Positions 6,082-35,881 of a stretch of DNA of 64,000 nucleotides are shown here, in pieces. Below the pieces are notes generated by a model. The model was given only the letters and a program-made list of their open reading frames with translations. It was not told where the DNA came from and did no database searches. Within the stretch, counting starts at the first letter, position 1. Each line of letters opens with the position of its first letter. Origin of the DNA: an uncultured virus (IMG/VR IMGVR_UViG_3300031646_000001) (lineage: Duplodnaviria > Heunggongvirae > Uroviricota > Caudoviricetes); IMG/VR virus record IMGVR_UViG_3300031646_000001; one strand, written 5' to 3'. The position numbers were made by a program, and so were the translations under genes.

Positions 6082-6082
6082 A

Positions 6083-9000
6083 TTATCTAATCTTTAAATT
6101 CTGTTCTGTAAATCCTTTAACAACGTCGATATCAGTTACTTTTGCAACTGGTAAAAATAGTTCGTCAACTTCTGCTTTAACTTGGAATAGGTTACCAAAG
6201 TTACTTTCACTGTTTGTTGGCACTAATGCAACACTACTAATATTTGTTGGCATTGATTGATGTATAAATGCCGCAAGTTCTGTATAATAAAAACTCTCTC
6301 CCATGTCCCAATTATTAAGTAAAAAGAATCTATTAATTGCTTCAATAACTTGGCTCTTTACTTCGTTGTCACTTATGTCAGATCCAAGTGTTTTAATAAC
6401 TTTAAATGTTGCTTGTAGTTCGGTTATAGCCATTGAACCGAACAGTAATTTAAATTTCACTGGTCGGTAAATAATTTGATCACTAATACTTTTATAGTTA
6501 TTTAAATTATTAAACGAAATTGATAACTCAGTATTAGTTGGTGGAGCAGGAAATTCTACTAGTGTTTTATTATTTGCCTTCCACGAAAGAACGTTATCAT
6601 AATATGTTTTCGTTAATATAAAGATATCTATTAAGTTTGTTACGCTTGGATCAACTCGTTGATCGGTTGGAGCATAATGTTTCCATTGGAAGAATATTTT
6701 TTCTTCTGTGCTATTAGCAATTGTACTATCAGACGAATTAACTTTTGGTGTATTATATCCGCTTCTTCCAATAAATGCTGATAGTTTTAAAGTTCCATCA
6801 GTAGCATTTGTTAATGTAGTTAAACCATATGGCGTTACCGAAGCAATTTTCTTAAACACTTTTAAGTCTGTTCTGTAAATATATTTTCCAGCGTATGTAG
6901 AAGCATTTTGGATAATAACATTTTCTTCTGCTTGTGTATCTGCTTGTAGTACGTTTCGTGAAAGTTTATAATATGTATATCCGTCAAAGTCCGTATAAGT
7001 TTCTTCAAACAAATATCTTGCTACATCAACAAACTTGTCGAAACTTAAAGGATCATCTGGAATACCGTCGCCATCATTGTCGTGAAATGTAACTAATACT
7101 TTACGAGGATCTTGATAACCATCCGAATACGTTAACAATTTTGAAAGATTAAATTTAATATCTGTTTCTAAATTCTGATTTAATTTGATTACCGGTGTTC
7201 CTATTGTTGTTACCGGAGAATCTCCAGTTGGTGTTGAAAATGATACCGTTGTATCGCTAGTATAACCGTTACCTGGATCGGTAATTTCAACATGACTAAC
7301 AAATCCATCGATATTAATAGTGCTTGCACCAGTACCATTGGTTGTTTCGGCATATGAAATAAGTGGACGTCCTGTATAACCAAATCCAGGATCAATAATA
7401 TCAACTGATCTAATCGACCCGCTATTTGCAATTGTGCAAACTGGAGCAGGTGTCCAACCAGTGCCGCCGTTGTTTATTATTACAGCAGTAACCGCGCCGC
7501 CTGTTATTGTTACTGTGCCGGTGCCGTTGATCCCTGTATTTCCTGAGAACGCAACTGTTGCCGAAGTATATCCCGAGCCGCCGCCTGTTATTGTTATTGT
7601 ATCAATTATACCAGATGCATTTACAGTACACGTTGCAGTTGCTAATGTACCATCGCCCGAAATTGTTACCAAGGGCCGTGAATAATATCCGTTACCTGTG
7701 TTTCCTATTACAATACCGGTAACATTACCGGTAGCATTAACTGTTGCTGTTCCTGTAGTTGATGTGCCGCCAATTGGTGCTGTAGTAAATATTACCGTTG
7801 GAGGACTTCCTTGTGTATATCCTGAACCAGTATTAATCATTGTAACTGCTGTGATACTACTATTAAGTGTAGTTGCTCGTGCTTGTGCAATTGTTGAATA
7901 TCCGCCTCCAGTAAATGTAATAATTGCTGGTAGGTCGACACTAGTATAGCCCGAACCAGAATTAGTAACAGTTATACCGGTAACTGTACCTTCTTGGGTT
8001 GCGGTGGCTGTTGCTTGGCGCGATACACATGGTGCTGTGCCAGCAGGCGGCGCACCGATAGTTATTGTTGGAAGTGATTGATAACCACCGCCGCCAGTAA
8101 GGGGACTTGGTGAAAATGCAATGGATATAACTTTCCAATTAAGATCGAACGTTGCGCCGAGGCCACCTAATACTGGTACAGCAATTCCACCAGCAGTTGT
8201 GATATAATCACCACCTGCAAGCAATGTTGCGCCAGTAATTGCGCCGCCGCCGTCAACTGTATTAACTGTTATTGTTGCCGCTGTACCGCCAGTGAAGTCT
8301 CCACCACTTACAGTAAGAACATTACCTGCTGTATATCCTGCGCCGCCGTTGTTTATTGTTACTGGCGCACAGAGAGTTGGTGTACCTGTGTCATCACCTA
8401 CTGCCATATGTGCGACGCCAATGGCTTGTGTACCAAGTGCCGTGCCACATGAAATTGTTGCTTTACCAGCAGTTGGTGTAATCCAAGTTATTGTTAAGTT
8501 ATTATCGTCAACAAATGTAATTGTAGGAGCATCATAATGCCCTCTAATATTATAATATTTTGTTGCATCTGGACTTGCAAATCCTGCCATCAATAATGCA
8601 CTACCTAGTTTTGCAATATCAACGTTGACATGCTTTTTACCAAGATTGTGTGTTATGTTCCAAATTCCTGCTGGTGTCCCAGTAGTAAAATTAAATCCTG
8701 TGCCAGTTGCACCATTATTACCAAGGTTATGTGTTACAACAACATAACCGGCTTTGGTAACATTGGCTGGAAACTTGATTTTACATTGTGTGGTGCTAGT
8801 ATATTCAATAATCGGATGATCAAATCTGCCCTGGGCACTTATATCTGTCGAACCCTCAGTATAAACAACATCAATATTTGGATATTGTTCTCCTAAGTTA
8901 TGATTAATAATCCATTCATTAGTACTTAATTGTGCTGGGCTAACAAATTTTGACTTAATAATATCAATATAACCAATTGTATTTGAGTCCCATGTAACTT

Positions 9001-12000
9001 TTAAATTATTCTCATCAATAAATTCAACTGTCGGCTGCGAGTAAATATGATCAATTGCTAAATCATTCCCTCCTGATGTAACAATAATTTCATAATTAAC
9101 ATACTTTTGATTTAATCCATGATTTACATTCCAAACTGTACCTGAAAAACCAGGAGAATTAACCGTAACATCGGGTGTTGTAATATAGCCTCCGCCTTGG
9201 TCGGTTATTGTAGCGCCTGTTAATGCAGTGTCAATTGTTGCATATCCTAATGCAGTTATGCCGCCGCCGGCCGGAGCAGGAAATGCTATTGTAGGTAGTG
9301 ATGTATATCCTGCACCCGAAGCAAATAACTCAATTCCAATATCAGATATAGTATCATCTGCAATTGTTGGCAATGCTGTTGCTGACTCAGATAAATTTGC
9401 TTTTAATCTAAGAGAGCGGCCGCCGGTTGCAGTATTTAATACCCCGGAATTGTTAATCATAATTTCATTTTGAATACCGTTCGAATCAACTGTAACACTA
9501 TCTAAATAAGTTAGTGCAGGATCAATTGGTGCATATTCTGAACCGCCAATACCACCTGAAAGAAAGTTCCACGAAAGTTGTGCTACTGCGGTGGCCGGAT
9601 CAATTTCGCCAGGCTGTTGAAATTCAACAACAGGTGATGATGTATAACCATTACCCGGTGTTAAAATATTAATTCTATCAATTTGTGATCGTTTATCACT
9701 ATTAATTTTTAAAAGAGAAATTACATCTCTTTTTGCTTGTCCTGTTTTTACATCAACTGTTTTAAATGCATTGTCAAAATAGAATCTAACGTCTTCTTCA
9801 CTTTCAAAAATATAACGCATTCCTCTTGTTGATAAAGAAAAGTTTGCACTAGTAAGTGATGTTGCTTCAACGTATTCTATTTTAATAATCCAACTATCAT
9901 CTTTATTGGTATTAGTGTTATCTTGTGCATTAACTAAACTAAATTCTGTTGCTGTAGATAAGTTATTAGGATTGATTACATAAAATGCTGAAGTTTTATA
10001 ATCATAACCAATACCAAATGTGTTTTTAAGATCAAGTTGTGTAAAAATTGCTGTTTGTTCGGTGGTGTTAAATAATTTTCGAAATTTTGGATAAACCCGT
10101 GTTAAAATATATCCATCTGGTATAGAAACATTTAATTCAATCGGTCCAGTTGTTAATCCTGTTGGATTTCCTGATACAGTTAAATTTTCAACTGTAGCAA
10201 ATAATGTTAAAGACCTTGCAGAGTTTTGAAATTCTAGTAATGATTTCTCAACAATAAATTTATTTTTTCCTGTGCCGCTTGTACCTACAGTTTGATAATT
10301 AGTTGCAATACTTGCTACGTCTTGTTTTACAAAATACCCTTTATTACCGTCGGTTGACGATGGTAAAGTAACCCATTGCATAACTTCACTGGTAGTGAAT
10401 CGCCATGCTGAACTGCCATCGGCTGTGTGTACTGCTTTTCGATAAACATCATAATAAAAATTAATAACGTCGTCCTCTGATAATTGAGGTTGAACATATC
10501 TTTGAATAATAGTATTAGATGTTGTTGAAGATGTAAGTTCAGCAACAACTTGAATGTTCTGTTCGTCTTTGTAAATAAACCCATCTTCGGCAAATACATT
10601 TAAATTTTGTACAGTGCCGGTTGGATCATTAATGTCAATAAACCTACTATGCCCTGCGTGTGTTCTATTAATGGCTTTGATTTTAATAATGTCTGAATTC
10701 TTATATAATGGATATGTGTTATAATCCTCACCATTAACCATTCGATCCTGTGTATAAAATACTTGAGGAGCATTTGTTTTAATTTCAGCATTTGTTTCAG
10801 TTGCTAAACTATTGCTAATACTTCCAACAAGTCCAAGTGTTATGCTTAAGATATGAGTGGTATTGTTTTTACCTATGTAAGGTACTTGAATTGTTTGTAA
10901 ACCAATATCTTCTGGACGGGCCGTTGTTGTCAGGTTTGCACTTTGCCTATACCATACTCGTGTAGTTCCTGACGGTGCATCGCCAAATGAGCCATCTGCA
11001 AATCGTAATGATATTTTATCATTAACAGCCGACGTAACTGCAAAAATCTTTCTTTTATTTTTAAGTAAACTATTATAAACTACACTAGTACCATTTACGC
11101 TAGGTACTTTAGTCCAACTATCAAGTATAGTACCGGTTGAATCAACAGTTTGACACCAAACATCAAAATTATTAATATTCTCTTTATTAATAAAGATTTC
11201 TCTATTTGGTTGTGGCAGATCTAATGCAAAATCATCGAATGATAATGCACCTTGTTTTAGGTACATAAAGAATCCAGTTTGACTACTGTTATTACCTAAG
11301 CCATCATTGATGTAAAACATACTTAATCCATTTGCAGGATTTGGTTCTATTTCTTTCATAAACATGCCGTCTTCGAATGTAGCATTAACTACTTCGAACG
11401 GAAAACTTGCACCGTTAACATCCCCATTTAAAGAATAAGTAACTGCTAGATTTTTAATAGCATCAATAGTATATACTTCAATTGGAACAGCATCTACAGT
11501 ACCTTTTTTAACTGGAGTACCATATGGGTTTTGTGCTAGGAATGCCGCATTAAGTATTAATGTTAATTGTTCTAAATAATCAACATTATTTGGATCATTC
11601 CAATTTATTACTAAATTTGATAAATCATTTCCTGCACTATCAATAATTTGTTCGTCGGTTGATACAGCGAAAATCTTTATGACGCCGGCCGCTGGAAGAT
11701 TTCTCTTTGGAGTATAATTTAACATTTTTGCTAAACGTCGAATACTTTCGGTGCGTTCAGCAGTATCTAAAAAGTTTTCTCTAGTATTTAAGTCTTGTCT
11801 AAATGCAATTGTTTGGCCCATATATGCAAGTAGTTCAATGATAGCAATAAATTCACTGCTTTCGATAAAGTCATTAAATTCTTCTGGAAAATGCCGTTGT
11901 AAATATTCAATCATCGCACGTTTAATCGTATCAAAATCATATGCAGTAAAGTTAATTTCACTGAATGTTCGATAAATTGTTCTAAAATCTTCTGCGGCGA

Positions 12001-12031
12001 AAAAGTTATTTTGTCGTTGTATTTGGGCCAT
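6083..12031 (-). CDS. gp6: Baseplate wedge subunit, T4 gp6-like, with a large internal repeat insertion
   Basis: N-terminus (YDFDTIKRAMIEYL...FNDFIESSE...ELLAYMGQ...ENFLDTAERTESIRRLAKMLNY), RFADGSFG and TQDRMVNGEDY motifs are typical of gp6/baseplate J proteins; follows the gp25 gene. Confidence 0.85.
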   Translation of the reverse strand: MAQIQRQNNFFAAEDFRTIYRTFSEINFTAYDFDTIKRAMIEYLQRHFPEEFNDFIESSEFIAIIELLAYMGQTIAFRQDLNTRENFLDTAERTESIRRLAKMLNYTPKRNLPAAGVIKIFAVSTDEQIIDSAGNDLSNLVINWNDPNNVDYLEQLTLILNAAFLAQNPYGTPVKKGTVDAVPIEVYTIDAIKNLAVTYSLNGDVNGASFPFEVVNATFEDGMFMKEIEPNPANGLSMFYINDGLGNNSSQTGFFMYLKQGALSFDDFALDLPQPNREIFINKENINNFDVWCQTVDSTGTILDSWTKVPSVNGTSVVYNSLLKNKRKIFAVTSAVNDKISLRFADGSFGDAPSGTTRVWYRQSANLTTTARPEDIGLQTIQVPYIGKNNTTHILSITLGLVGSISNSLATETNAEIKTNAPQVFYTQDRMVNGEDYNTYPLYKNSDIIKIKAINRTHAGHSRFIDINDPTGTVQNLNVFAEDGFIYKDEQNIQVVAELTSSTTSNTIIQRYVQPQLSEDDVINFYYDVYRKAVHTADGSSAWRFTTSEVMQWVTLPSSTDGNKGYFVKQDVASIATNYQTVGTSGTGKNKFIVEKSLLEFQNSARSLTLFATVENLTVSGNPTGLTTGPIELNVSIPDGYILTRVYPKFRKLFNTTEQTAIFTQLDLKNTFGIGYDYKTSAFYVINPNNLSTATEFSLVNAQDNTNTNKDDSWIIKIEYVEATSLTSANFSLSTRGMRYIFESEEDVRFYFDNAFKTVDVKTGQAKRDVISLLKINSDKRSQIDRINILTPGNGYTSSPVVEFQQPGEIDPATAVAQLSWNFLSGGIGGSEYAPIDPALTYLDSVTVDSNGIQNEIMINNSGVLNTATGGRSLRLKANLSESATALPTIADDTISDIGIELFASGAGYTSLPTIAFPAPAGGGITALGYATIDTALTGATITDQGGGYITTPDVTVNSPGFSGTVWNVNHGLNQKYVNYEIIVTSGGNDLAIDHIYSQPTVEFIDENNLKVTWDSNTIGYIDIIKSKFVSPAQLSTNEWIINHNLGEQYPNIDVVYTEGSTDISAQGRFDHPIIEYTSTTQCKIKFPANVTKAGYVVVTHNLGNNGATGTGFNFTTGTPAGIWNITHNLGKKHVNVDIAKLGSALLMAGFASPDATKYYNIRGHYDAPTITFVDDNNLTITWITPTAGKATISCGTALGTQAIGVAHMAVGDDTGTPTLCAPVTINNGGAGYTAGNVLTVSGGDFTGGTAATITVNTVDGGGAITGATLLAGGDYITTAGGIAVPVLGGLGATFDLNWKVISIAFSPSPLTGGGGYQSLPTITIGAPPAGTAPCVSRQATATATQEGTVTGITVTNSGSGYTSVDLPAIITFTGGGYSTIAQARATTLNSSITAVTMINTGSGYTQGSPPTVIFTTAPIGGTSTTGTATVNATGNVTGIVIGNTGNGYYSRPLVTISGDGTLATATCTVNASGIIDTITITGGGSGYTSATVAFSGNTGINGTGTVTITGGAVTAVIINNGGTGWTPAPVCTIANSGSIRSVDIIDPGFGYTGRPLISYAETTNGTGASTINIDGFVSHVEITDPGNGYTSDTTVSFSTPTGDSPVTTIGTPVIKLNQNLETDIKFNLSKLLTYSDGYQDPRKVLVTFHDNDGDGIPDDPLSFDKFVDVARYLFEETYTDFDGYTYYKLSRNVLQADTQAEENVIIQNASTYAGKYIYRTDLKVFKKIASVTPYGLTTLTNATDGTLKLSAFIGRSGYNTPKVNSSDSTIANSTEEKIFFQWKHYAPTDQRVDPSVTNLIDIFILTKTYYDNVLSWKANNKTLVEFPAPPTNTELSISFNNLNNYKSISDQIIYRPVKFKLLFGSMAITELQATFKVIKTLGSDISDNEVKSQVIEAINRFFLLNNWDMGESFYYTELAAFIHQSMPTNISSVALVPTNSESNFGNLFQVKAEVDELFLPVAKVTDIDVVKGFTEQNLKIR

Positions 12032-23268: not shown

Positions 23269-24300
23269 ATGTTAAAAGCATTTTTTAGAAGTAAACAATG
23301 GGCCTTATGGGCCTGGGGCGGAGGTGGTTTACTTGCTATCTCTTTATGGATACAAGTACAGATAACAGTAGCCATAAACAAGTGGTATGGCGGCTTTTAT
23401 GATTTACTACAAACATCAGGAACATATAAAGATAATTCAGCAGAAGGTATTGCGTTATTTTACGATAAGTTAATTAGTCTTTCTTATTGGACTAATGGCT
23501 TCGAAGGTGACCCATCTTTTGTTGTGTTAGCATTCCCTTATGTTGTATTAGCAGTACTAACAGGTTGGTTTACTCGTGTATATGGACTGCGATGGCGCGA
23601 AGCAATAACGTTTAATTACATACCGCGTTGGCGTACAGTTAAGGAAGAAATAGAAGGCGCATCCCAGCGTATTCAAGAAGACTGTAATCGGTTTGCGCGA
23701 ATTGTAGAGTCATTGGGTTTACAAGTTGTTAGAGCTATTATGACATTAGTAGCATTTATTCCAGTATTATGGGGTTTAAGTAGTGCTGTTGAAATCCCAT
23801 TCTTTAGTGAAATACCTGGGTCATTAGTTTGGGTAGCTCTCACGGTATCATTGGGTGGTTTAATAATCTCATGGTTTGTAGGTTGGAAATTACCAGGACT
23901 TGAATACAATAATCAGAGAGTAGAAGCGGCGTTTAGAAAAGATTTAGTACTTGGCGAAGATGATAAAGCCAACTACGCACAGCCCGAAACTATATTAAGT
24001 TTGTTTACAGGAATAAAATTTAACTATCATAGGCTGTATTTACATTATGGTTATTTTGATACATGGATGATTATGTATGACCAATTTATGGTCATTGTTC
24101 CATACTTAATAATCGGTCCAGGTTTGTTTACTGGCGCAATATTGTTAGGTGTGGTAGTACAAGTTAGTAATGCGTTTAGTAAAGTACATGGTGGATTTGC
24201 ATTATTCTTACATAATTGGACTACAATAACTGAACTTCGTAGCATATGGAAACGTTTGCACGAATTCGAAAAAAATCTCGATAAGTACGCAATTGCTTAA
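23269..24300 (+). CDS. sbmA: SbmA/BacA-family peptide transporter (membrane protein)
   Basis: VAINKWYGGFYDLLQ, LRWREA, IEGASQRIQED, LPGLEYNNQRVEAAFRKDLVLGED and NWTTITELRSIWKRLHEFE motifs; multiple TM segments; GGAGG RBS. Confidence 0.85.
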   Translation: MLKAFFRSKQWALWAWGGGGLLAISLWIQVQITVAINKWYGGFYDLLQTSGTYKDNSAEGIALFYDKLISLSYWTNGFEGDPSFVVLAFPYVVLAVLTGWFTRVYGLRWREAITFNYIPRWRTVKEEIEGASQRIQEDCNRFARIVESLGLQVVRAIMTLVAFIPVLWGLSSAVEIPFFSEIPGSLVWVALTVSLGGLIISWFVGWKLPGLEYNNQRVEAAFRKDLVLGEDDKANYAQPETILSLFTGIKFNYHRLYLHYGYFDTWMIMYDQFMVIVPYLIIGPGLFTGAILLGVVVQVSNAFSKVHGGFALFLHNWTTITELRSIWKRLHEFEKNLDKYAIA

Positions 24301-24308
24301 TTAGAGAG

Positions 24309-24330
24309 GAGAGGGGCAAATACCCCTCTT
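24309..24330 (+). terminator. Hairpin separating sbmA from the radical SAM cassette
   Basis: GAGAGGGG-caaata-CCCCTCTT inverted repeat; weak U-tract. Confidence 0.45.
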
Positions 24331-24353
24331 CAACTGTAAGGTAAATATTAGTA

Positions 24354-25253
24354 ATGAAGTATTTTGAAACAGAACCAGAAGATAATATTTTTACTGCATT
24401 AGTTGCAGATCTCACCCACCGTTGTAATATGGAATGTGCCAATTGTTATATCCCTAATCGTGCATTTCCTGATATGGACGCTAACAAATTATATTCATTT
24501 TTAGAACGTTTACCTAATAGAATATATGTTAGACTTATTGGTGCAGAACCAACAATGCGTGAAGATTTATTTGATATTATTCGTAATATTAAAAAGATTG
24601 GGCATAAGTGCAGTCTAACAACCAATGGGTTAAAATTAGGGCATAGAGATTATGTTAAGGAAATTAAAAATGCTGGCCTGCGCCTTATTTTAATTTCAAT
24701 GAATGGCGCCGGCGATGATGATGTTTATAAAATTATTGATAGTGGAAAATATGCAAATTTAAAAATTAGAGCACTTCGTAATTGTATGTTAGAAAATATG
24801 ATTATTAATACAGGAACTATTATTGCAAAAGGTATTAATGAACATACAATCGATGATCAAGTTAATTTGTTTTTTAATATAATGGAAGAAACAAATTATA
24901 AACCAAGAGTCAAACCTATATTACGTTTTAAAAGTGTTGGCAAAATTGGCAGGCATATGGATGGAGATACTACATATAATATTAATGAACTTATTGATCT
25001 TTTTAAACAAAAATTTGATATACAGCCTTCGGATCAACCAGTACAAAATAGTGGTAGGACATCTGTTGATGGAACCTATGGATTAATTGGAACTATATAT
25101 GAATATAACAATGTTCTAATACGTTTTGTTGATTGGGAAGTTGACGATGACGGTGTAGTTGATTCAGGTAGTGAATATAGAGGACGTATTACTAAAGATT
25201 GGAAATGTGCTCCATTTTTTGAAAATATAAAGTTAAACGAATATGGATATTAA
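24354..25253 (+). CDS. Radical SAM enzyme (MoaA-like core, no obvious SPASM domain)
   Basis: CNMECANC (CxxxCxxC), LIGAEPT and LTTNG motifs; TAAATA at 24342-24347. Confidence 0.88.
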   Translation: MKYFETEPEDNIFTALVADLTHRCNMECANCYIPNRAFPDMDANKLYSFLERLPNRIYVRLIGAEPTMREDLFDIIRNIKKIGHKCSLTTNGLKLGHRDYVKEIKNAGLRLILISMNGAGDDDVYKIIDSGKYANLKIRALRNCMLENMIINTGTIIAKGINEHTIDDQVNLFFNIMEETNYKPRVKPILRFKSVGKIGRHMDGDTTYNINELIDLFKQKFDIQPSDQPVQNSGRTSVDGTYGLIGTIYEYNNVLIRFVDWEVDDDGVVDSGSEYRGRITKDWKCAPFFENIKLNEYGY

Positions 25254-25863
25254 TGAAATTATTAATAATCCAGATCCAGTAATATTGGGTATTATAGAAA
25301 AAGAATTACAAACATTATCAGAGCAAAATTTACATAACGTTGAAAATTACCAAGGGTTAATAACTGATATGAAGGACTATGATTGTTTTCATGTTATAAC
25401 CGAGGACGATACACTTATTGCTTTCTGTGGTTTATACAGTAAACGTTGGAATAATGTTGGTAGAGCATTACAACGTGCATATAAGAATCCATTATATAGA
25501 CGCAAAAGTTTAGCATATAATTCTACTGACAATATGCAACATTTATGGAGTGAAATTTTTGCTCCTTTACAAATTGCATTTGCTAACAAAATTGGATTGG
25601 ATGCTGTATTTGTTACTACAGAATTTCCACGTCGGTGGAAAAGTTTAAATCGATTTACTCAACGTTTAAATGGAACGTTTGAAATGCTTCCAAATATGTA
25701 CTTTATATGCAATAAATATAATACAGAAGGAAAATATATCGGAGCACATTTTGCAAAAACGTGTTGGCAAAATGTATCATTGTGTATTTTAAATGATGAA
25801 TATGTATTTGATTTCGATTCAATGACGCATAATGAATGGAGAAGTTATTTTGAAAAACAGTAA
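25243..25863 (+). CDS. GNAT-like acyltransferase (putative)
   Basis: LIAFCGL...GRALQRAYKNPLYRRK resembles the GNAT beta4/acyl-CoA loop; overlaps both neighbouring genes. Confidence 0.45.
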   Translation: MDINEIINNPDPVILGIIEKELQTLSEQNLHNVENYQGLITDMKDYDCFHVITEDDTLIAFCGLYSKRWNNVGRALQRAYKNPLYRRKSLAYNSTDNMQHLWSEIFAPLQIAFANKIGLDAVFVTTEFPRRWKSLNRFTQRLNGTFEMLPNMYFICNKYNTEGKYIGAHFAKTCWQNVSLCILNDEYVFDFDSMTHNEWRSYFEKQ

Positions 25864-26467
25864 ACCAATTAGTTTAGATAATTTATTAAATTATTCAGAT
25901 CAAACATTCATTGACGTTGCGGCCGAAATTGAAAAAGTAATTCAAAAAGTAAAACCTATTTACATTGGAAAAGATTCTGATGGCGATCTTGCATTAGTAG
26001 ATGAAAAAAACAAAGAATGGGGAGCATGGGTATTAGTTGATGATACTGTATATGGGGATGTTGATTATTATAAACCGCGCAGTTGGAATGCAATGGCCTT
26101 GCGTTTATTTCCAAAATTAGTTAAGTTTATAAACGATTTACCTATCGAGGGGTTAGGTAGAGCAATAATAATGTCAATTGATGCTAATAAAGAAGTTACA
26201 ACACACATTGATAATCAATTTTTGGATAATCAAGAAGTTTTTGATTATGATAGATTATTAAACATTAGTTTTGGAAATAAGAAACGTTTATATATGTACA
26301 ACCCCGATACTAATACAAAAAAATATTTCGAAGGTAAAATTAATTGGATTGATGTAAGTGATTATCACGGAGTTGATCCTTCTGCAGATTTTACATACTC
26401 TGTAAGGGTTGATGCAAAACTTAATAAAGATTTTAGACAACTGGTTCACGATAAGTATGGGGTATAA
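25832..26467 (+). CDS. Asp/Asn beta-hydroxylase-like 2OG-Fe(II) oxygenase
   Basis: GRAIIM...HID...YHGVD...SVRVD cupin facial triad (HxD...H) plus a 2OG-binding Arg. Confidence 0.65.
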   Translation: MNGEVILKNSKPISLDNLLNYSDQTFIDVAAEIEKVIQKVKPIYIGKDSDGDLALVDEKNKEWGAWVLVDDTVYGDVDYYKPRSWNAMALRLFPKLVKFINDLPIEGLGRAIIMSIDANKEVTTHIDNQFLDNQEVFDYDRLLNISFGNKKRLYMYNPDTNTKKYFEGKINWIDVSDYHGVDPSADFTYSVRVDAKLNKDFRQLVHDKYGV

Positions 26468-26505
26468 TCAATAAATACTACTATTACTTTTTAGGAGTTT
26501 GTCTG

Positions 26506-27333
26506 ATGATTAGTGATCTCGAAGTATTTGATTATTTTAAACAAGGATTACATGAAGAAGTTTTAACTCATCCAATTATCAAACGCAACAGATATCTATG
26601 GTGGTTTTCTCAGAACACAGATTTAGATAAAGAAGACATTATCTACTTTGCAAAACAATTTTCTGTTTTTTCAAATCAATTTATTATTGCACAATTACTA
26701 AAAACACTCAATTCAAATAGTCTCGAACAAATGCGAGATGCTAAAGAAATATTAGTAAATGAATTAGGAGTTGTATTTAAGTCTGAAAATAAAGTAAATG
26801 CAACTGAAATCGATCCCGAAGTAGTTGGTGTAGAAGGTACCGTTGATGGCGGCACATTTAGATTTAAGGCCGCACATTTTGAATGGCTTTTATTTTTTGT
26901 AAAGCCGCTTGGATTAACATTTAATGATATTGGTAAACGTAAACATGCTGATCCAGCAACACTTTTCTTTTGTGATGAGTTAATTAGAATCTACGGTAGT
27001 GATGATTTTAGTACTGCCGCTGGCGCTAGTTTTGCTGTTGAAAATTGGGCAAATGCCGGTTTTTGGAAACAGTTAATTCAAGGATTGGAATGTTATAGTA
27101 AAGAATCTGGAATACAATTAAACTTAGGATTCTTTAAATGGCATGATGCATTAGAAGCACAACACGCACAACACACATGGGATGAGTTAGAAGATTTGTT
27201 TCTTAATAATAAAGACTTCGACCAGGATAAATTTATTCGTGGGGCACTAGAAATGCTCGACGGTGTTCAAGCATTTTGGGAAGGGTTAGATCAGCACAGG
27301 ATTACAAGGTACTGGCGCGATACCAGAGGTTAA
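26506..27333 (+). CDS. Heme-oxygenase-like diiron oxidase (CADD/PqqC/TenA superfamily)
   Basis: NELG...AHFEW, FAVENW and FFKWHDALEAQHAQH (H-x3-E-x2-H) ligand pattern; own TAAATA (26472-26477) and AGGAG RBS. Confidence 0.7.
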   Translation: MISDLEVFDYFKQGLHEEVLTHPIIKRNRYLWWFSQNTDLDKEDIIYFAKQFSVFSNQFIIAQLLKTLNSNSLEQMRDAKEILVNELGVVFKSENKVNATEIDPEVVGVEGTVDGGTFRFKAAHFEWLLFFVKPLGLTFNDIGKRKHADPATLFFCDELIRIYGSDDFSTAAGASFAVENWANAGFWKQLIQGLECYSKESGIQLNLGFFKWHDALEAQHAQHTWDELEDLFLNNKDFDQDKFIRGALEMLDGVQAFWEGLDQHRITRYWRDTRG

Positions 27334-27833
27334 TCTTTTTGTGAGTATTCTTTAACATTCTCTTTATTATCAGAAAAGAATTTATCAAATTCACAAAAAT
27401 ACCAACTTTTGTATGTGATGCCACGGTTAGTAACCATATGATGTTTAAGTTCATACATTACATATTTGCCTTTGCGATTAAACTTCATAATAATTAAATT
27501 AAAGTCGCCTTCGTCGGCGGCATCGTATGTCTGTTGTATCCAAGTGTTTAGAATTGGAATTTCTTTATTTTGAAACAACTGATGAAACGGAAAATCCGCG
27601 TATGCTTTACATTCAACGTTCAAATGTCCCCAATTGTCTGGCGGAATGATATCACTTTTGAATCCTCTAATTTGATTCTCTGATAAGTGTTCTTTACGAA
27701 CAGCATTTTGTCCACCAACGTATGCACCACTTTGTGGTACTCTTGTAAAACTATCCTCGTATAATTCAGACAAGTAATTTGCTATGTCTCTTTCAAAAGT
27801 TTTACCTTTGTCTTTAGATTTTTTTCCTGACAT
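27330..27833 (-). CDS. Holliday junction resolvase (PD-(D/E)xK, Hjc-like)
   Basis: SKDKGKTFERDIA...SGAY.GG...SDII...VECKAY motifs. Confidence 0.8.
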   Translation of the reverse strand: MSGKKSKDKGKTFERDIANYLSELYEDSFTRVPQSGAYVGGQNAVRKEHLSENQIRGFKSDIIPPDNWGHLNVECKAYADFPFHQLFQNKEIPILNTWIQQTYDAADEGDFNLIIMKFNRKGKYVMYELKHHMVTNRGITYKSWYFCEFDKFFSDNKENVKEYSQKD

Positions 27834-27860
27834 TTATTTTCCTTTTTTTGTAGAAACCGG

Positions 27861-27889
27861 TTGACAACGTTCTCTACTTTGTGTATTAT
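27861..27889 (+). promoter_or_regulatory. Sigma70-type promoter reading into the non-coding element
   Basis: TTGACA-17 nt-TATTAT. Confidence 0.65.
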
Positions 27890-27913
27890 ATAGTCAATGG
27901 TACAAAAAGTCAA
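27885..27913 (-). promoter_or_regulatory. Sigma70-type promoter for the resolvase
   Basis: Minus strand TTGACT-17 nt-TATAAT; its -10 box overlaps that of the plus-strand promoter. Confidence 0.7.
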
Positions 27914-28455
27914 ATGAAATTATCAAACATCAGGCGCAGTAGGCACACGGCACACTTGGCACACAAACGCGGCAAAAACAAAATCAGGCTTCGCAAAATT
28001 AAACTTTCTAATAAAACTATTAATGGCACACTAGGCAACATTTAGGCATTACATAGCAACCTTAATGGTGTTAAGAGCACCCGCATCGAGGCTGTTTTTT
28101 ACGGTCGGATTTTGCGAAGACGTAATTACGTTGTTGCAGGGAAAACGCTAACCTAAGGCTAGAACGATTACGGCTCTGAGAAAAAAGCAACCGTATACTT
28201 TAGTAGATGTTGTCAGTAAGCATCACTAAAGTTCCGTTGGTATAGAAGACTGAGGTAGGGAGTACCGGCTAACCGCTTCCGCAAAACAATCCTCTTTATT
28301 GAATGGTGAAATACTCGAATGATGACACCTCATACTTCTCCCTTGCGGGAGAAGTATGGCAAAAATCTGAATGATAACAAGTAATCTTATATAAGAAGTA
28401 AAAGAAAGTTTGAATAGAATGAAAAACTTTTACAATGCCTGTTAAGGCATTCCTA
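27896..28455 (+). ncRNA. Putative large structured non-coding RNA (family not recognised)
   Basis: No long ORF in ~630 bp; upstream promoter; helices 27989-27999/28109-28119 (11 bp), 28197-28204/28225-28232, 28331-28358 (12-bp hairpin), 28434-28451 and others. Confidence 0.6.
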
Positions 28456-28464
28456 AAGTGAATA

Positions 28465-28671
28465 TTAGTTACGCTTCGTCGGACTCTGAGTAGGTAATAA
28501 CTTATTTTCGACTTTTAACAATATCATGTTGATACTTGTAATACATTCATACCAAAAATAAAGCGTAACCGGAACTAGCCAAACAAGTGCTATATAAAGT
28601 ACACTTGGTTCGCTTTTTAATATAAAAATAACAAAAAGACTGAATGCTGTTGCTAAAAACATAAACTTCAT
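28465..28671 (-). CDS. Small membrane protein (two hydrophobic segments), function unknown
   Basis: 68 aa; ATG overlaps the TGA of the gp51-like frame (ATGA coupling). Confidence 0.55.
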   Translation of the reverse strand: MKFMFLATAFSLFVIFILKSEPSVLYIALVWLVPVTLYFWYECITSINMILLKVENKLLPTQSPTKRN

Positions 28672-28898
28672 AATAATGCTATACCGGATTCTTTAGTACG
28701 TTCTATATTTTGTTCAATTAAATCCATAATCATACTTCGATCGTCTATACTTAATTGCCAGGCTTGTTCGATAGTAATACTACCTCTCATATACCAGCAG
28801 ATTTCAAGTACTTGCTTTTTTAAGGCTCTAGTTTCTGTTGCAAGATCATTTAGATAGTCGGAAATCTCTTCTTGAGACCCGACTAGGAGCCTATATCG
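28668..28898 (-). CDS. gp51-like/gpGT-like C-terminal segment, probably reached by -1 frameshift from the gp26-like gene
   Basis: 76-codon frame RYRLLVGSQEEISDYLNDLATETRALKKQVLEICWYMRGSITIEQAWQLSIDDRSMIMDLIEQNIERTKESGIALL; first ATG is only at codon 37 (28790); frame opens at the T-TTT-TTC heptamer. Confidence 0.7.
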   Translation of the reverse strand, partial: RYRLLVGSQEEISDYLNDLATETRALKKQVLEICWYMRGSITIEQAWQLSIDDRSMIMDLIEQNIERTKESGIALL

Positions 28899-29773
28899 AA
28901 AAAACTTGCTGGATTAAATTCTATTTTTTGATTATAAGAATGTTCGCATTCCGGGCATACAAGTTTCCACTCTCTAGCGATGCCTTTGTCATTTACACTA
29001 TTTGCTTCGTTCATGATTAGATCGGCTTCTTGTTTTCCAATGCCTTGTACCCATGCTAAAATATGTTTTTTATTAGTAACTTCAGTTTCTTCGGTTGCTT
29101 CGCCCTCTTCATCTTCGGTACTAGGTATAATAACTTTAATAATAGAATTGGCCAAGATTACAATATTCAAATCTGCCATTGCTTGAAAACTTTTATTAAA
29201 TACCTTTAATTTTTCAAAGTCATCAATTTTCTTTTCTTCATCAGATGTTAATCTATTAAGTTCGGTAGTTTCACGGAATGCTTGAAGAGCAGCCATTTGA
29301 CTATCTTTATATGTATATGGCCGAATATAAACAGTTAAACCATTATCTAGATTAACTATATATTCGTCATCTAGTTCTTCAACAGTTTCTAAAATAGCCT
29401 CGATATTAACATCATAATCATGCTTGTGCTCACATTCAGGACACTCAGAACCAATTGGTAAATCTTGCCCGTATGTTGCATATCTCGATGCAAGTAAAAT
29501 TACATCAACATCATTTGATGATAAGTTATAAACATCTTGAATTCCTGTTACACTACGAATAACTGAAACTAAACTTTCACCGTTTAGCAATGCATCAGGA
29601 TTACGAAGCATGGTTTCGTCTTTTGCAGTCATCGGAAAAATAGGAATTTCGTCAGTAATTTGACTTTGTGTGTCCAGTTCTGAAAATTTACCTCGACTTG
29701 GTAAAGATACATATAATTTTGGAACTCTAAGAAATCCGTCCAATGGATTAATATTTTTTACGTTAGTAGTCAT
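28883..29773 (-). CDS. gp26: Baseplate hub assembly/tail assembly chaperone, gp26-like
   Basis: PMTAKDETML..PDALLNGES, DVDVILLASRYATYG, two CPECEH zinc knuckles; divergent from the tape measure gene. Confidence 0.75.
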   Translation of the reverse strand: MTTNVKNINPLDGFLRVPKLYVSLPSRGKFSELDTQSQITDEIPIFPMTAKDETMLRNPDALLNGESLVSVIRSVTGIQDVYNLSSNDVDVILLASRYATYGQDLPIGSECPECEHKHDYDVNIEAILETVEELDDEYIVNLDNGLTVYIRPYTYKDSQMAALQAFRETTELNRLTSDEEKKIDDFEKLKVFNKSFQAMADLNIVILANSIIKVIIPSTEDEEGEATEETEVTNKKHILAWVQGIGKQEADLIMNEANSVNDKGIAREWKLVCPECEHSYNQKIEFNPASFFDIGS

Positions 29774-29879
29774 GTCTGTTTTGACCTCCGAATTTCGTTG
29801 GATAAATATTATTATATAATAAGATAATGTTAACCTATAATATTATTTATCTACGTATATAATGGTGGATTAAGCAAAT

Positions 29880-32800
29880 ATGGCAGAAATGATGATCGAT
29901 GATTGGGCAACGGAGACGACGCTCGATAAAATCAGACAAATTCTAGAAGGTAATATTAAAAAAGGCCCGCTAGATGCCCTTCTCAAAGTAATGGAGGACA
30001 TGGCTAAAGGAAAGGACGTTGATGCGGCCCGGGCCCGATCCGTTATGGAATCTGCTAAAGCAACTGCTGATGCAACCACCTCAAGCGCAGATGCAGAAGG
30101 TAAAAAGTCAGGTGTTGAAGATTCTCGTTGGCGCAAATTAATCGACAACGGCAAAAAAGTCCACAATGAAATTGCAAAACAAGATATTGGTAAGCATTTA
30201 ATGGATGCTGGCGGTATGCTTGCTATGCCTATTGCGTCAATGGAAGACGCATTTGCTAAAATTAGTGGAGTGTTTACAGCAGTTGGCGCAAGTGTTTTTA
30301 ATGCATCAAAAGCATTAATATCAAGTATGGGTAAAATTGGTGCAGGCATTGGTAAAGCAATGGGTGCTATTGGTATGTTTGGCGGTGCTTTATTAAGTGT
30401 TGCCACAGGCGCAGTTGGATATTTACTCGGTGCTATAACCGCAATGGGAGATACATTCTTTGATCTGTATGATACAGGTATTAACTTTGCATCAGGATTA
30501 AAAGAAGGTGCATCTGGTATAGGATCAATGTTAGAAGTTGCTACTGATGCTAGATTATCTCTTGGAGATTTTGCAGAATACTTAGCAAAAAATACTTCAG
30601 TGGCACTTAGTATTGGTACTAAAAATATGGCGCAACTTAGTCTTGGTGTTAGAGATGCAATATATGATATGGGTGCCTTTGGAATGTCAATTTCAGAGAC
30701 TAATGAATATTTAGGCGATTATTTAGAATCGTCACGTTTGACTGGCACATTAGAATCAATGAACCAAGCACAACGAACGCAAGCAGGCGCGGAATATTTA
30801 GAACAAATTACTAGGTTATCTGCGGCAACCGGTAAACGACGAAAGCAAGTTGCTGAAGAATTAGCACAAATAAAGAAAAGTACTGGTGCTCGAGCCTTTT
30901 TAATGGCCCTTGGTGATAAAGAAAGATTACAAGCAGAGCAGGCAATCGACACGATGACGGGTTTAATGAATACGTTTGATGACACCGGCGGTATGTCTAA
31001 AGATTTTGCCGACTCGCTGTTGTTAGGAAACTTTGCCGCAACCGAAACTGGTATTGCAATGGCACAATCCGGACGTCAAGTTGAAGCAAACATGATTCAA
31101 GACATTCAAAATAGACTTAAAAATGGCCAATTAAATAAGAAACAAGCCGAAGAAGAAATGAAGCGAGTGGCTGCTTATGCGGCCGCTAATACATCCGCAA
31201 TAGAAGCCACAGCACAAATAGCCGTGGCGTTCGGCGACGAAGCCCGTCAACATGTAGCGTTTACAGCAGGTGCTAAATTATTAAACAAATCTATGGCAGA
31301 CATGAATACTGGAGTAACCAAGACCGAAAAAAGTATCGGAAACTGGGATGAAATGCAAAATGCTATCTCACAGACTTGGCAAAAATTTATGTCTACCTTA
31401 TTTGGCGGCGATGAAGGAAATGACTTTTCTAAGATATTAGGCGATATCTCAGCGACGTTCAGCACAATGTTAGGTCCAAACTCAGATTTTACTAAATCAT
31501 TGCATAGTTTTGCTGAAACAATGGCAACACATGTATTAGAGGCATTAAAATGGTTTCAGAGCGGCGGCGCCAAGGAAACGATGGGAAAGATAAAGACCTT
31601 TTTAGCAGAACTCCCAGTTAAAATTAAGGCGTTTACTGCTGGCCTCGGTGAAATGGTAGACGCTATTAAGAGCTTTTTAATGAAAGACTCCGGTGAAAAA
31701 GACAAAGATGGCAAAGCAATTATGGAATTTAAATCCTTTGGCGAAATTATTGGCGACACAATTAAAAAAGGCCTTGCCGCGGTAAATTGGCTTAAAGTTG
31801 GAGGTATTATTGCGGCCGCATTTGCTGGTATATTCCTTATGAAATCCGTTGTAGGCATGTTTACTTCATCACTTACTACTGGTATGGGTTCTCTATTAGG
31901 CAAAGTGGCACCTGGCTTAGCAAAAGTAACCGGCGGCGCTGGCGCGGCCGTTAGTAAGGTAGCAGGCGGCGGCGGCGCAAGCAAAGGCGGAATGGATACA
32001 ATTGCTAAAGCAGTAGGTAAACTTGGTAAAGGAGTTGGCCAAGCAATTAAAGGACTTATGCAAGGCGTGGCCGGCGGATTAAGTGCATTCAAACCACAAG
32101 TATTAATAGGTGCAGTAATATTTGGTTTATCGATAGCGGCAGTCGGCGCAGGTATAGCGGCGGCGGCGTGGATTATGGGTAAAGCATTACCCACACTTGC
32201 TGAAGGTTTAGGAAGTTTTGCTACTCTTGATGGAGATAATTTACTTGATGTTGGTTTAGGAATGCTTGCTGTAGCCGCAGGATTAGCGGCTATGGGCGCC
32301 GGATCGGTAGTCTCAGGAATTGGTGGTTTAGTAGGCGGCGCATTTAGTAAATTAGGAGACATGATCGGCGCTAAAAGTCCACTTGTAATGTTAGAAGAAT
32401 TTAGTAAAGTTAATATTAATACTAAAAACGCTATAAAAAATGCCGAAGCAATGGTAGCATTTTCAAAAGCAATGGCTATGGGAGGCGGCGGAGCGGCCGC
32501 GGCAGGTATTGGTACGTTAGTTGGCGGAATAACTGGTGCCCTTGGTAAATTCTTTGGCGCCGATGATCCGTTAACACAACTTAAAAAGTTTGGCGCGGTT
32601 GATATCGATGGTGCAAAAGTTAAAGTTAATGCCGAGGCAATGAAACTTTTTGCTAGTGCAATGGCAGATGCACCAACAATGAAAACAGATGTAGTCGGTG
32701 CGTTGTTTGCTGGAGTTGTAAGCATTTTTGGCGGCACTGTAACAATGCCTTGGGCCAATTTAAAGTTATTTGCTGATGCAGATGTCGACGGAGCAAAAGT

Positions 32801-34147: not shown

Positions 34148-35881
34148 ATGAGTTGGCGAAAACATTTTACAGTATACGATCAATCTAACTTTAGAGGTAG
34201 AGCAGATAGTGCTACCGGAACAGGTGCGGCATCTAATAGCAAATATGCTTCGTGGTTACCTGAAGTATATATGGGCCCACCTAATAGACTCGAACGTTAT
34301 ATGCAATATGACCAAATGGATGCAGATAGTGAAGTAAATGCGGCATTAGATATTATTGCTGAATTTTGTACACAAGTCGATGATGCTACAACATTACCAT
34401 TTGAAATACATTTTAAAAAAGAAGCAACTGAATCAGAAATTAATGTATTGCAAAGTACTTTAAGACAATGGTGTAATATTAATGATATGGATCGTCGTGC
34501 TTGGCGTTTAGTGCGTAGCACATTAAAATATGGCGATCAATTTTTTATGCGTGATCCTGAAACTTGGAAGTTATATTGGATCGATCCAGCAAAAGTTGAA
34601 AAGGTTATTGTTAATGAAGGCAAGGGCAAAAAAGCAGAAGAATATTGGATTAAAGATTTAGATCTTAATTTGCAAACTTTAGTTGCAAGTAATATGCATT
34701 CTGGACGTGATTATTCGTCCAAAGCAAATCCAGCCATCCCAAATATAACAGGTGGCCAATCATCGTCGACTGTTGGTTCAATGGAAGGCTTAGGTATGGG
34801 AGGCTCAACAGCAGGATTTAGTAATGCAGTACCAGTTGATGCAACTAATATTGTACATATTAGTTTAAGTGAAGGCTTAGATAATAACTGGCCTTTTGGT
34901 AATAGTATTTTAGAGCCAGTTTATAAAATCTTTAAGCAAAAAGAAATGCTTGAAGATGCTATTTTAATTTATCGTGTACAACGTGCTCCAGAACGCAGAG
35001 TATTTTATGTTGATGTTGGTGATATGCCACGTTCACGTGCTATGGCGTTTATTGAGCAAGTTAAAAATGAAATTCATCAAAAAAGAATTCCTAATAAATC
35101 AGGCGGCGGCGCCAATGTAATGGACGCGGCATATAATCCATTATCAATGATTGAGGATTATTTCTTTGCACAAACTTCTGAAGGTAGAGGTTCACGAGTT
35201 GAAACATTACCGGGTGGTGAGAATTTAGGACAAATTGATGATTTAAAATATTTTAATAATAAATTATTACGTGGTTTACGTGTACCAAGTTCTTATTTGC
35301 CAACAGGACCAGAAGACGGTACTGCTGTTTATAGTGATGGCAGAGTTGGTACAGCATTTATTCAGGAATATAGATTTACAAATTTCTGTAAAAGACTACA
35401 AGATTTAATTTCACCGTGGTTAGATGATGAATTTAAATTATTTTGTAAACAGCGAGGTATTGAGGTCGAAGCAAGTTTGTTCGAATTAGAATTTACAGAA
35501 CCACAAAATTTTGGTAAGTATAGACAAATTGAAGTTGATGGCGCACAAATGAATGTGTTTTCAGCCGCTGTAGCAATTCCGTTTATGAGTAAACGTTTTG
35601 CAATGAAACGGTATTTGGCATTGACAGATGACGAAATCCAACAAAATGAAAGATTATTCCTTGAGGAAGTTGGCGCCGAACATCCAATGACTGCACTTGA
35701 TGCAAGCATGGTTGATGTTGGTGTACGTCCAATGGATAGTGGTGATTTAGCACCTGATATTGATGCAGATTTGGATATGGGTGGCGATATAGGTGGTATG
35801 GAACCCGGAGCAGAGTCTCCAATTAGTGGTGCAGAAAATGCGCCAGCACCTGTAGCACCAGCGGCAGAACCGGCTGTATAA
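34148..35881 (+). CDS. gp20: Portal protein
   Basis: LEDAILIYRVQRAPERRVFYVDVGDMP, EDYFF..EGRGSRVETLPGGENLGQIDD, LRVPSSYL. Confidence 0.95.
   Translation: MSWRKHFTVYDQSNFRGRADSATGTGAASNSKYASWLPEVYMGPPNRLERYMQYDQMDADSEVNAALDIIAEFCTQVDDATTLPFEIHFKKEATESEINVLQSTLRQWCNINDMDRRAWRLVRSTLKYGDQFFMRDPETWKLYWIDPAKVEKVIVNEGKGKKAEEYWIKDLDLNLQTLVASNMHSGRDYSSKANPAIPNITGGQSSSTVGSMEGLGMGGSTAGFSNAVPVDATNIVHISLSEGLDNNWPFGNSILEPVYKIFKQKEMLEDAILIYRVQRAPERRVFYVDVGDMPRSRAMAFIEQVKNEIHQKRIPNKSGGGANVMDAAYNPLSMIEDYFFAQTSEGRGSRVETLPGGENLGQIDDLKYFNNKLLRGLRVPSSYLPTGPEDGTAVYSDGRVGTAFIQEYRFTNFCKRLQDLISPWLDDEFKLFCKQRGIEVEASLFELEFTEPQNFGKYRQIEVDGAQMNVFSAAVAIPFMSKRFAMKRYLALTDDEIQQNERLFLEEVGAEHPMTALDASMVDVGVRPMDSGDLAPDIDADLDMGGDIGGMEPGAESPISGAENAPAPVAPAAEPAV

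Follow-up and report, generated by a model that had tools for sequence, protein, structure and literature searches.

The window analysed here is a stretch of 64,000 nucleotides from an uncultured virus (IMG/VR record IMGVR_UViG_3300031646_000001), a marine T4-like jumbo phage judging by its encoded genes. Of special interest is the gap at positions 27834-28464. With 631 nt it is the largest in the window that is free of open reading frames (ORFs) of at least 60 aa, the runner-up measuring 211 nt, and its GC content is 0.40-0.41 across 27850-28300 as compared with 0.27-0.36 in most flanking windows. A first-pass annotation of the DNA letters had correctly pointed out both properties and proposed a folded multi-helix RNA with its own promoter, a view that is now supported by conservation, covariation, a G-U bias for the + strand and contigs in RNA libraries. 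We are confident that the gap holds a real, independently promoted and structured RNA gene, a divergent branch, found in phages, of a family in which the Rfam family RF01712 (Methylobacterium-1) makes up the front third. That it acts in trans and is carried as mobile-element cargo is a tentative suggestion. For the overall reading, in which this firm identity and the much weaker mechanism are blended, our confidence lies only a little on the favourable side.

Conservation, fold and transcription

Related loci were gathered from IMG/VR using the nearby gp26-like baseplate hub gene (28883-29773, - strand) as a syntenic anchor, 80 loci at first and 199 loci plus the window later. A blastn search of the gap against the 80 loci first revealed a common word, GGCTCTGAGAAAAAGCAACC, which lies inside a conserved non-coding stretch of about 450 nt, present in phages with gp26 proteins of only 33-40% identity. 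An nhmmer profile of the core gave 109 matches among the 199 loci and the window, and its single match in the window, at 28044-28378 on the + strand (E-value 1.8e-43), delimits the conserved structured core. Of 101 distinct gp26 loci from marine T4-like jumbo phages that have a flank of 1500 nt or more, 65 contain the element; it is separated from gp26 by 322-1677 nt (median 715), with 43 copies on the gp26 strand and 22 on the opposite one. This count is a floor, because a profile-negative locus, L005 (gp26 54% identical), still carries a divergent version of the element (5050-5660, - strand of the locus). This version escapes the profiles and has a different central domain, yet it keeps the promoter, the leader repeats, the hairpin Hh with its two flanking repeats, and a 3' hairpin, all described below. 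Judging by L005, other profile-negative loci may still hold the RNA.

A stretch identical to the window was found on a 255-kb metagenome contig (L200). The nearest cultured relatives by gp26 are the jumbo phages PA5oct, Phosso, Atu_ph07 and the Rak2-like phages (29-34% identity), and blastn of the gap and of one main-family copy against 50,697 phage records returned no match. In the literature searched we found no account of the full-length fold, its distribution in phages or its enzyme neighbourhood; subscription-only papers and supplements may hold more.

The helices were derived from covariation and then tested by counting pairs against slid partners and 500 shuffles in three alignments. 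In A4 (MAFFT, 27 main-family sequences, 38 pairs), 95.9% of cells are paired against 45.5% for the best slid control, 27 of the 38 pairs vary on both sides, and none of the 500 shuffles equals the observed values. In A7 (MAFFT, 20 second-subfamily sequences including the window, 43 pairs), the corresponding values are 90.5% and 53.6%, with 29 pairs varying on both sides; shuffles matched the observed values 0 times in 500 on four measures and 13 times on one. A5, whose 64 sequences were aligned to model R1 and which is fitted to the nested helices and hence biased towards them, gives 92.1% against 46.4%, 30 pairs varying on both sides and 0 of 500 shuffles. Model R1, built without the window, scores window positions 28159-28302 at 39 bits (E 4.7e-6). 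Cells with G-U outnumber those with A-C in all three alignments (123:6, 241:25 and 51:30), an excess which means that the fold belongs to the + strand of the window. Both conservation and covariation, proposed at the outset as a check in syntenic phage loci, were therefore found.

All elements of the core lie on the + strand. Helix Hb (TACGG/CCGTA, 28169-28173 with 28191-28195) closes a near-invariant 17-nt loop, CTCTGAGAAAAAAGCAA, conserved from phage to bacterial copies; in A4 and in A5, 4 of its 5 pairs vary on both sides, as do 3 in A7. Helix Ha (ACTTTAGT-A-GATG / CATC-ACTAAAGT, 28197-28232) has 9 of 10 pairs varying on both sides in A4, with further support from A7 and A5. Its loop provides the 5' strand of the pseudoknot PKa, in which TCAGTAA (28213-28219) pairs with TTATTGA (28296-28302) and every counted pair varies on both sides (7/7 in A7, 4/4 in A4). 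A second pseudoknot, PKb, joins GTTGG (28236-28240) to CTAAC (28269-28273) in the loop of helix Hd; 4 of its 5 pairs vary on both sides in A4, and in A5 95% of its cells are paired and 4 of 5 pairs covary, although PKb is outside the R1 model. Hd itself (GGGAG 28258-28262 with CTTCC 28276-28280) is paired in 96-100% of cells in A4, A7 and A5 and is enclosed by helix Hf (GAGG 28252-28255 with CCTC 28291-28294), for which A7 shows 100% of cells paired and all 4 pairs varying on both sides. Further downstream stands Hh, a perfect 12-bp hairpin (28331-28358); among its 8 pairs counted in A7, 97.5% of cells are paired, 3 pairs vary on both sides and G-U variants are present. Hh is flanked by two direct copies of one word, X1 (GAATGATGACA, 28317-28327) and X2 (GAATGATAACA, 28369-28379). 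X1 lies in the loop of a proposed hairpin, Hg (GGTG/CACC, 28305-28329), which was read from the letters and shows no variation in the window's clade.

All the complementary segments listed in the first-pass annotation are present at their positions, and about half of its helices hold. Hb, Ha and Hh had been recognized there and are backed by covariation. At 28258-28280 the outer GGGAG/CTTCC persists as Hd, whereas the inner CGG/CCG has to be given up, the loop letters CTAAC pairing instead with GTTGG in PKb. A helix TGAGGT/ACCTCA is superseded by Hf, with which its GAGG covaries. An 11-bp helix (27989-27999 with 28109-28119) is not supported by the comparison: the nearest relative, L201, breaks 2 of the 11 pairs and turns 2 into G-U, while the next clade has unrelated sequence there. 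The surroundings of Hh had also been likened to a box C/D or kink-turn motif, which the comparison does not support: main-family copies (ACATGATAAC etc.) lack the CTGA beside X2, the ATGATGA belongs to one of the two direct repeats, and the only match to a small nucleolar RNA model was at chance level (E 1.3).

The 5' domain of the core (28044-28158, + strand) is clade-specific. It includes a palindrome hairpin at 28120-28131, in place of which the next clade has other hairpins (CGTGA-ATA-TCACG; ACGT-TTAAT-ACGT), and a firm secondary-structure model of this domain was not reached for the window. Three other readings of the core were dropped. A CCG/CGG pairing from RNAalifold gave way to Hf, which CAG/CTG covariation favours. 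TATGG/CCTAAT near Hd was considered as an 11-nt GAAA receptor; its bases fit a continuous helix, and it is missing from the window. Lastly, an ATG-started frame exists in the 3' domain of several copies, but indels shift it and, by eye, the peptides are clade-specific, so a small ORF was not retained.

A sigma-70-type promoter, TTGACA-17-TATTAT (27861-27889, + strand), is present in the gap as had been noted, matching 11 of 12 positions and conserved in the clade; from its -10 box, the RNA is predicted to start near 27896. Its -10 box overlaps that of a divergent promoter, TTGACT-17-TATAAT (27885-27913, - strand), for the neighbouring PDDEXK gene; in this promoter, AAAAGTCAAATGAAA and TATTATATAG are conserved within the window's clade. 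All 7 loci of the clade that reach the region (gp26 57-100% identical) retain the two promoters, as does L005. The 5' leader (27896-28043, + strand) is rich in C and A and poor in G, GGCAC(AC) words recur in it at 27933-27964 and 28025-28040, and repeats of GGCAC-type words precede the core both in the main family and in the window's clade. We counted 3-10 GGCA(C) words in the leaders of the window and its relatives, and similar words occur before bacterial cores (e.g., L292 and L283). On the 3' side, two + strand hairpins (AAAGTTT/AAACTTT, 28405-28430; AATGCCT/AGGCATT, 28434-28451) mark the boundary with convergent - strand genes. Both are conserved in the window's clade with invariant stems, including that at 28434-28451. 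They are candidate terminators; no T run follows them on either strand, and no intrinsic-terminator-like site was found on the + strand within 27300-29000.

Words of the stretch are present in 17 RNA-library runs and in one run guessed to be RNA. The three best runs, which may stem from one campaign, gave one contig each, over 27912-28342, 27908-28325 or 27908-28309, and the depths of these contigs (7.5, 10.7 and 16.8) are the highest in 24000-32000, other listed contigs having 2.5-10.3. A fourth run, from another study, contains a relative's contig over 27944-28142 with a depth of 10.7 versus 2-4.2. As a weak hint, the contigs fit a start near 27896. The metatranscriptome check suggested in the first-pass annotation is thus answered in part, with coverage of about 27908-28342 in three runs.

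These data bear on the possibility of a DNA-level element, that is, a replication origin, packaging or recombination site with GGCAC words as iterons and X1-Hh-X2 as direct repeats round an inverted repeat; an origin of replication or packaging had been offered from the start as the alternative. The repeated GGCAC words, the perfect inverted repeat flanked by direct repeats, the DNA enzymes encoded next to the element and its site between convergent or divergent gene blocks would all suit such a role. However, protein-bound palindromes cannot yield long-range pseudoknot covariation, the strong excess of G-U relative to A-C is as expected of one strand read as RNA, the promoter is conserved, and the stretch is represented by contigs in RNA libraries. 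We therefore consider a DNA-level element very improbable.

Bacterial copies and the Methylobacterium-1 motif

Comparison with Rfam, another of the checks initially proposed, found no family that matches the window. In particular, RF01712 was not matched by 27700-28700 with E-values allowed up to 10, or by the whole window at its gathering score (40 bits). An 18-nt scan of 185,579 species genomes returned 20 loci, close to the approximately 17 that we estimate to be expected by chance. Among these, R1 scored 10 of the 20 at 23.9-36.8 bits, and six at 16.3 bits, the value of the word alone; the well-scoring bacterial loci, inspected by eye, have the complete architecture. A profile made from phage copies alone reaches bacterial loci at E 1.3e-10, 1.6e-9 and 3.4e-8, the first two being the matches of the A7 profile (20 phage sequences including the window) to L308, which is the same place as L294, and to L311. 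L294 in turn scores 49.9 bits on RF01712, above the gathering cut-off of 40, and L292 scores 35.3 bits. Because the phage profile reaches the bacterial copies and L294 passes RF01712, part of this fold was catalogued in 2010, without a function. The novelty claimed in the first-pass annotation is accordingly qualified: the window itself matches no Rfam family, while a bacterial relative scores as a family catalogued in that year.

The RF01712 model is 103 nt long and, in its alignment to L294, covers a hairpin before Hb, Hb, Ha and a CCGU tail. The window has the RF01712-like hairpins Hb and Ha, backed by covariation, followed by CCGT at 28234-28237. The model ends without reaching Hf, Hd, the two pseudoknots, Hh or the X repeats, has a short Hb loop, unlike that of the present family, and misses both the window (E up to 10) and 11 phage loci (E up to 5). 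Like the present family, RF01712 has no catalogued function. In its source, the motif is listed as RNA 'Y', cis-regulatory 'n' and with the taxa 'Methylobacterium, marine' (Weinberg et al., 2010; PMC2864571). A literature search for the name Methylobacterium-1 found nothing on the motif beyond the 2010 paper, and neither the phage synteny nor the link to nuclease and recombinase genes was described in any paper that our searches turned up.

The bacterial copies adjoin genes for tyrosine integrases, a large serine recombinase, a small resolvase, or HNH and HNH-HIT proteins. In one genome, the interval from pntB to groEL contains, in this order, an integrase, the RNA, cargo and a resolvase, with a second RNA copy 44 kb off. 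Among 150 genomes of one bacterial family, RF01712 occurs in a single one, the centre genome itself, which fits mobile cargo and not a housekeeping gene. In betaproteobacterial islands (L308 8660-10870, L310 13492-19898, L312 5663-10295), we observed an integrase, sometimes HNH-HIT, the RNA and a conserved 62-64-aa ORF, all on one strand; a Pfam search with these ORFs found no family. Two copies lie on one contig of a Polynucleobacter metagenome-assembled genome (G003), and Oxalobacteraceae records (G004) give three R1 matches.

Neighbouring genes and possible modes of action

In phages, the gene upstream of the RNA is most often one for a SegE-like GIY-YIG protein of 140 aa, which ends directly before the element on the same strand in 90 of the 109 matches. 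The domain PF19835 takes up residues 3-123 of this protein, i.e., its catalytic domain. The SegE-like gene and the RNA are found as a module between gp26 and gp46 in both orientations (L008 versus L049). In the window's clade, in L068/L071 and in L005, a divergent PDDEXK_15 gene stands there instead, and L132 has PDDEXK_15 on the same strand. The window's own copy encodes a PDDEXK_15 / RusA-like endonuclease of 167 aa (27330-27833, - strand, divergent from the RNA; PF24608, E 2.2e-26; phrog_244). In L033 (reverse strand), two different GIY-YIG genes (145 aa and 226 aa) are arranged in tandem upstream of the element, which suggests repeated landing of homing-endonuclease genes at the site.

The position of the RNA beside such genes could also indicate a cis-acting messenger RNA element, a 3' untranslated region (UTR) or leader of the transcript of the neighbouring nuclease or recombinase that controls its stability or processing, comparable to the retroregulation of lambda int by sib. 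Besides the 90 matches in which the core begins right after the stop codon of the SegE-like gene, several bacterial copies (L294/L308, L300/L311 and L283) follow an integrase or recombinase gene on the same strand. On the other hand, RNA and nuclease gene diverge in the window's clade, in L068 and in L005, the RNA there being served by a conserved promoter of its own, and no same-strand gene follows the RNA in the phage loci inspected (the window, L008 and L049). Its size and two pseudoknots would, moreover, far exceed what a stabiliser needs. We regard a cis-acting element as unlikely, if less so than the other alternatives considered here.

A puzzling part of the family is the pair of X words. 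They measure 7-11 nt across lineages and, in a table read by eye, form the longest word common to both flanks of Hh in approximately 44 of 49 representatives. The first three or four letters take at least 15 forms (ACA-, TCG-, ACT-, GAA-, AGA-, GTA- etc.) and are followed by TGAT or TAAT. X1 and X2 thus differ between lineages and are identical within one RNA; in L004 and L212, X1 is deleted and X2 decayed. A search for an internal complement of X within the RNA found no consistent one. Two explanations of the words were discarded. One, a stop codon (TGA/TAA/TAG at one position in the phage copies), was dropped because bacterial copies carry CTTCAAGAT or CTTCAGAT; the other, antiparallel pairing of X1 with X2, is contradicted by variants such as TGATGC/TGATAC.

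Words that vary by lineage and match within each molecule could belong to an RNA cofactor of the adjacent DNA enzymes, in which a small nuclease or recombinase would be led to DNA by X1/X2 or by another variable part, in the way that omega RNAs guide IscB and TnpB, and bridge RNAs guide IS110. Such a role would suit an RNA that adjoins GIY-YIG, PDDEXK, HNH, tyrosine-recombinase and serine-recombinase genes, SegE-like proteins consisting of hardly more than a catalytic domain, and the joint loss of X1 and decay of X2 in L004 and L212. It is difficult to see, however, how one scaffold would serve six unrelated enzyme families, and selfish genes landing beside a conserved RNA gene are a simpler explanation; X is only 7-11 nt long, and no target for it was found in the window. 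We judge a cofactor of this kind to be quite improbable. Equally doubtful is a self-processing ribozyme that cleaves at or near the X sites, thereby freeing the Hh segment or setting the 3' end. The complex pseudoknotted core with near-invariant single-stranded stretches and the two identical X sites would be in keeping with catalysis, and the RNA contigs end at 28309-28342, near X1, a weak hint at best as contig ends are not RNA ends. Yet no ribozyme family of Rfam matches, and no internal guide complementary to X was found.

We return to the independent RNA gene and how it may work. Host-type RNA polymerase would start at the conserved promoter near 27896 and produce a C/A-rich leader with GGCAC repeats followed by a compact core (28044-28378). 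In this core Hb, Ha, Hf, Hd and Hh are tied together by the two pseudoknots, PKa linking the Ha loop to the strand after Hf and PKb linking the strand after Ha to the Hd loop, with single-stranded copies of X1 and X2 on either side of Hh. Acting in trans as cargo of mobile elements, the rigid body might present the near-invariant Hb loop to a partner conserved across hosts, while two copies of a partner particular to the lineage, in the simplest case a nucleic acid, may be bound by the X words. In marine jumbo T4-like phages the family has its fixed place between the genes for the baseplate hub and for the recombination nucleases gp46/47, and in bacteria it is carried by genomic islands. Of all this, the conservation, the fold, its strand, the synteny and the neighbouring genes are shown by the comparisons, and the transcript ends, the action in trans and the partners are inferred. 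At its most speculative, and we give this little credence, the RNA could be the nucleic-acid-recognition subunit of a new mobile-element ribonucleoprotein: X1 and X2 would pair with two DNA sites or ends and hand them to an adjacent minimal nuclease or recombinase, such as the 140-aa GIY-YIG protein, in a guide- or bridge-like system outside IscB/TnpB/IS110.

Several observations weigh against our interpretation. The profile has no match in 36 of the 101 syntenic loci, at least one of which (L005) has the divergent version. Single-sequence folding of 28037-28385 is beyond chance on both strands (z = -2.98 on the + strand, -3.11 on the - strand) and does not favour either, and pairing of the + strand as single-stranded DNA would yield the same covariation. 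A same-strand gene precedes the RNA in most relatives, where the RNA could be a 3' UTR. The X word is neither enriched nor complemented in the 64-kb window (7 matches with at most one mismatch versus 3.6 expected). The expression data are contigs, from which ends, strand and level cannot be read, and DNA can occur in RNA libraries.

The rest of the window agrees with a T4-like jumbo phage, with genes for a T4-type portal (34148-35881), for recombination nucleases resembling gp46/47 and for several proteins of 1400-2000 aa. On the - strand, 1-12031 is occupied by two very long ORFs of 2027 aa (open at the window edge) and 1982 aa. At 23269-25253, a gene for an SbmA/BacA-like transporter (PF05992, E 3.8e-117) is followed by one for a radical SAM protein; this cargo is situated between gp46 and the RNA locus and is absent in the relatives L008 and L049.

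PA5oct and other large RNAs

Among cultured phages, Pseudomonas phage PA5oct deserves attention. Its gene order is that of the window: portal, hub, a 2.2-kb stretch of tiny ORFs, a RusA-like gene and gp46/47. The 2.2-kb stretch (approximately 75.8-76.85 kb; L280 7860-8920, - strand of the locus) is annotated only with the tiny ORFs gp337-gp341, and a perfect TTGACA-17-TATAAT promoter is divergent from the RusA-like gene. Two further places, at 12.9 kb and 246.16 kb (L315 and L316), share a 130-nt module with this stretch at 83-84% identity. By eye, all three places have an Hb-like GCTCTGGT(A/C)GAAA loop, a terminal hairpin, and a PKb-like pair of TTCCG plus 5 nt with its complement before CCGCCTC-like letters. 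The module at 246.16 kb falls within ncRNA004, a + strand RNA at 246116-246734 whose transcription was shown by RNA-seq (Lood et al., 2020; PMC7318152). In length the PA5oct loci far exceed the family members, and neither nhmmer nor model R1 gave a significant match to these places (best E 0.098 and 0.14). Homology of PA5oct with the family is a lead, not a result.

If our reading is correct, Methylobacterium-1, an orphan motif for 15 years, would be only the front third of a double-pseudoknot RNA of approximately 330-450 nt. In uncultured marine jumbo phages this RNA would rank among the most widespread non-coding genes, its site beside the baseplate-hub gene being fixed, and it would travel with integrases, resolvases and homing nucleases in bacteria. 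It would represent a new class of large structured RNA with abundant natural variation for modelling, and its always-identical X1/X2 words are a concrete puzzle. Cultured handles exist in Alsobacter soli SH9 and possibly in PA5oct. Annotators should be aware that tiny ORFs called in such gaps are probably spurious.

GOLLD, ROOL, OLE and HEARO are RNAs of several hundred nt with many helices and pseudoknots, often carried on phages or mobile elements, and most of them have, to our knowledge, no known biochemical role. The present RNA resembles them in size class, helices, pseudoknots and carriage, whereas its neighbours differ from theirs. The likeness to GOLLD and ROOL drawn in the first-pass annotation holds as regards scale, not descent: a search of Rfam 15 gave no match to GOLLD, ROOL, OLE, HEARO, group I/II introns, RNase P, transfer-messenger RNA (tmRNA) or self-cleaving ribozymes, and ARAGORN found no transfer RNA or tmRNA. 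Omega and bridge RNAs are encoded next to IscB, TnpB or IS110-type enzymes, and the genes that adjoin the present RNA belong to other enzyme families. It has a variable matched word, for which no target was found in the window.

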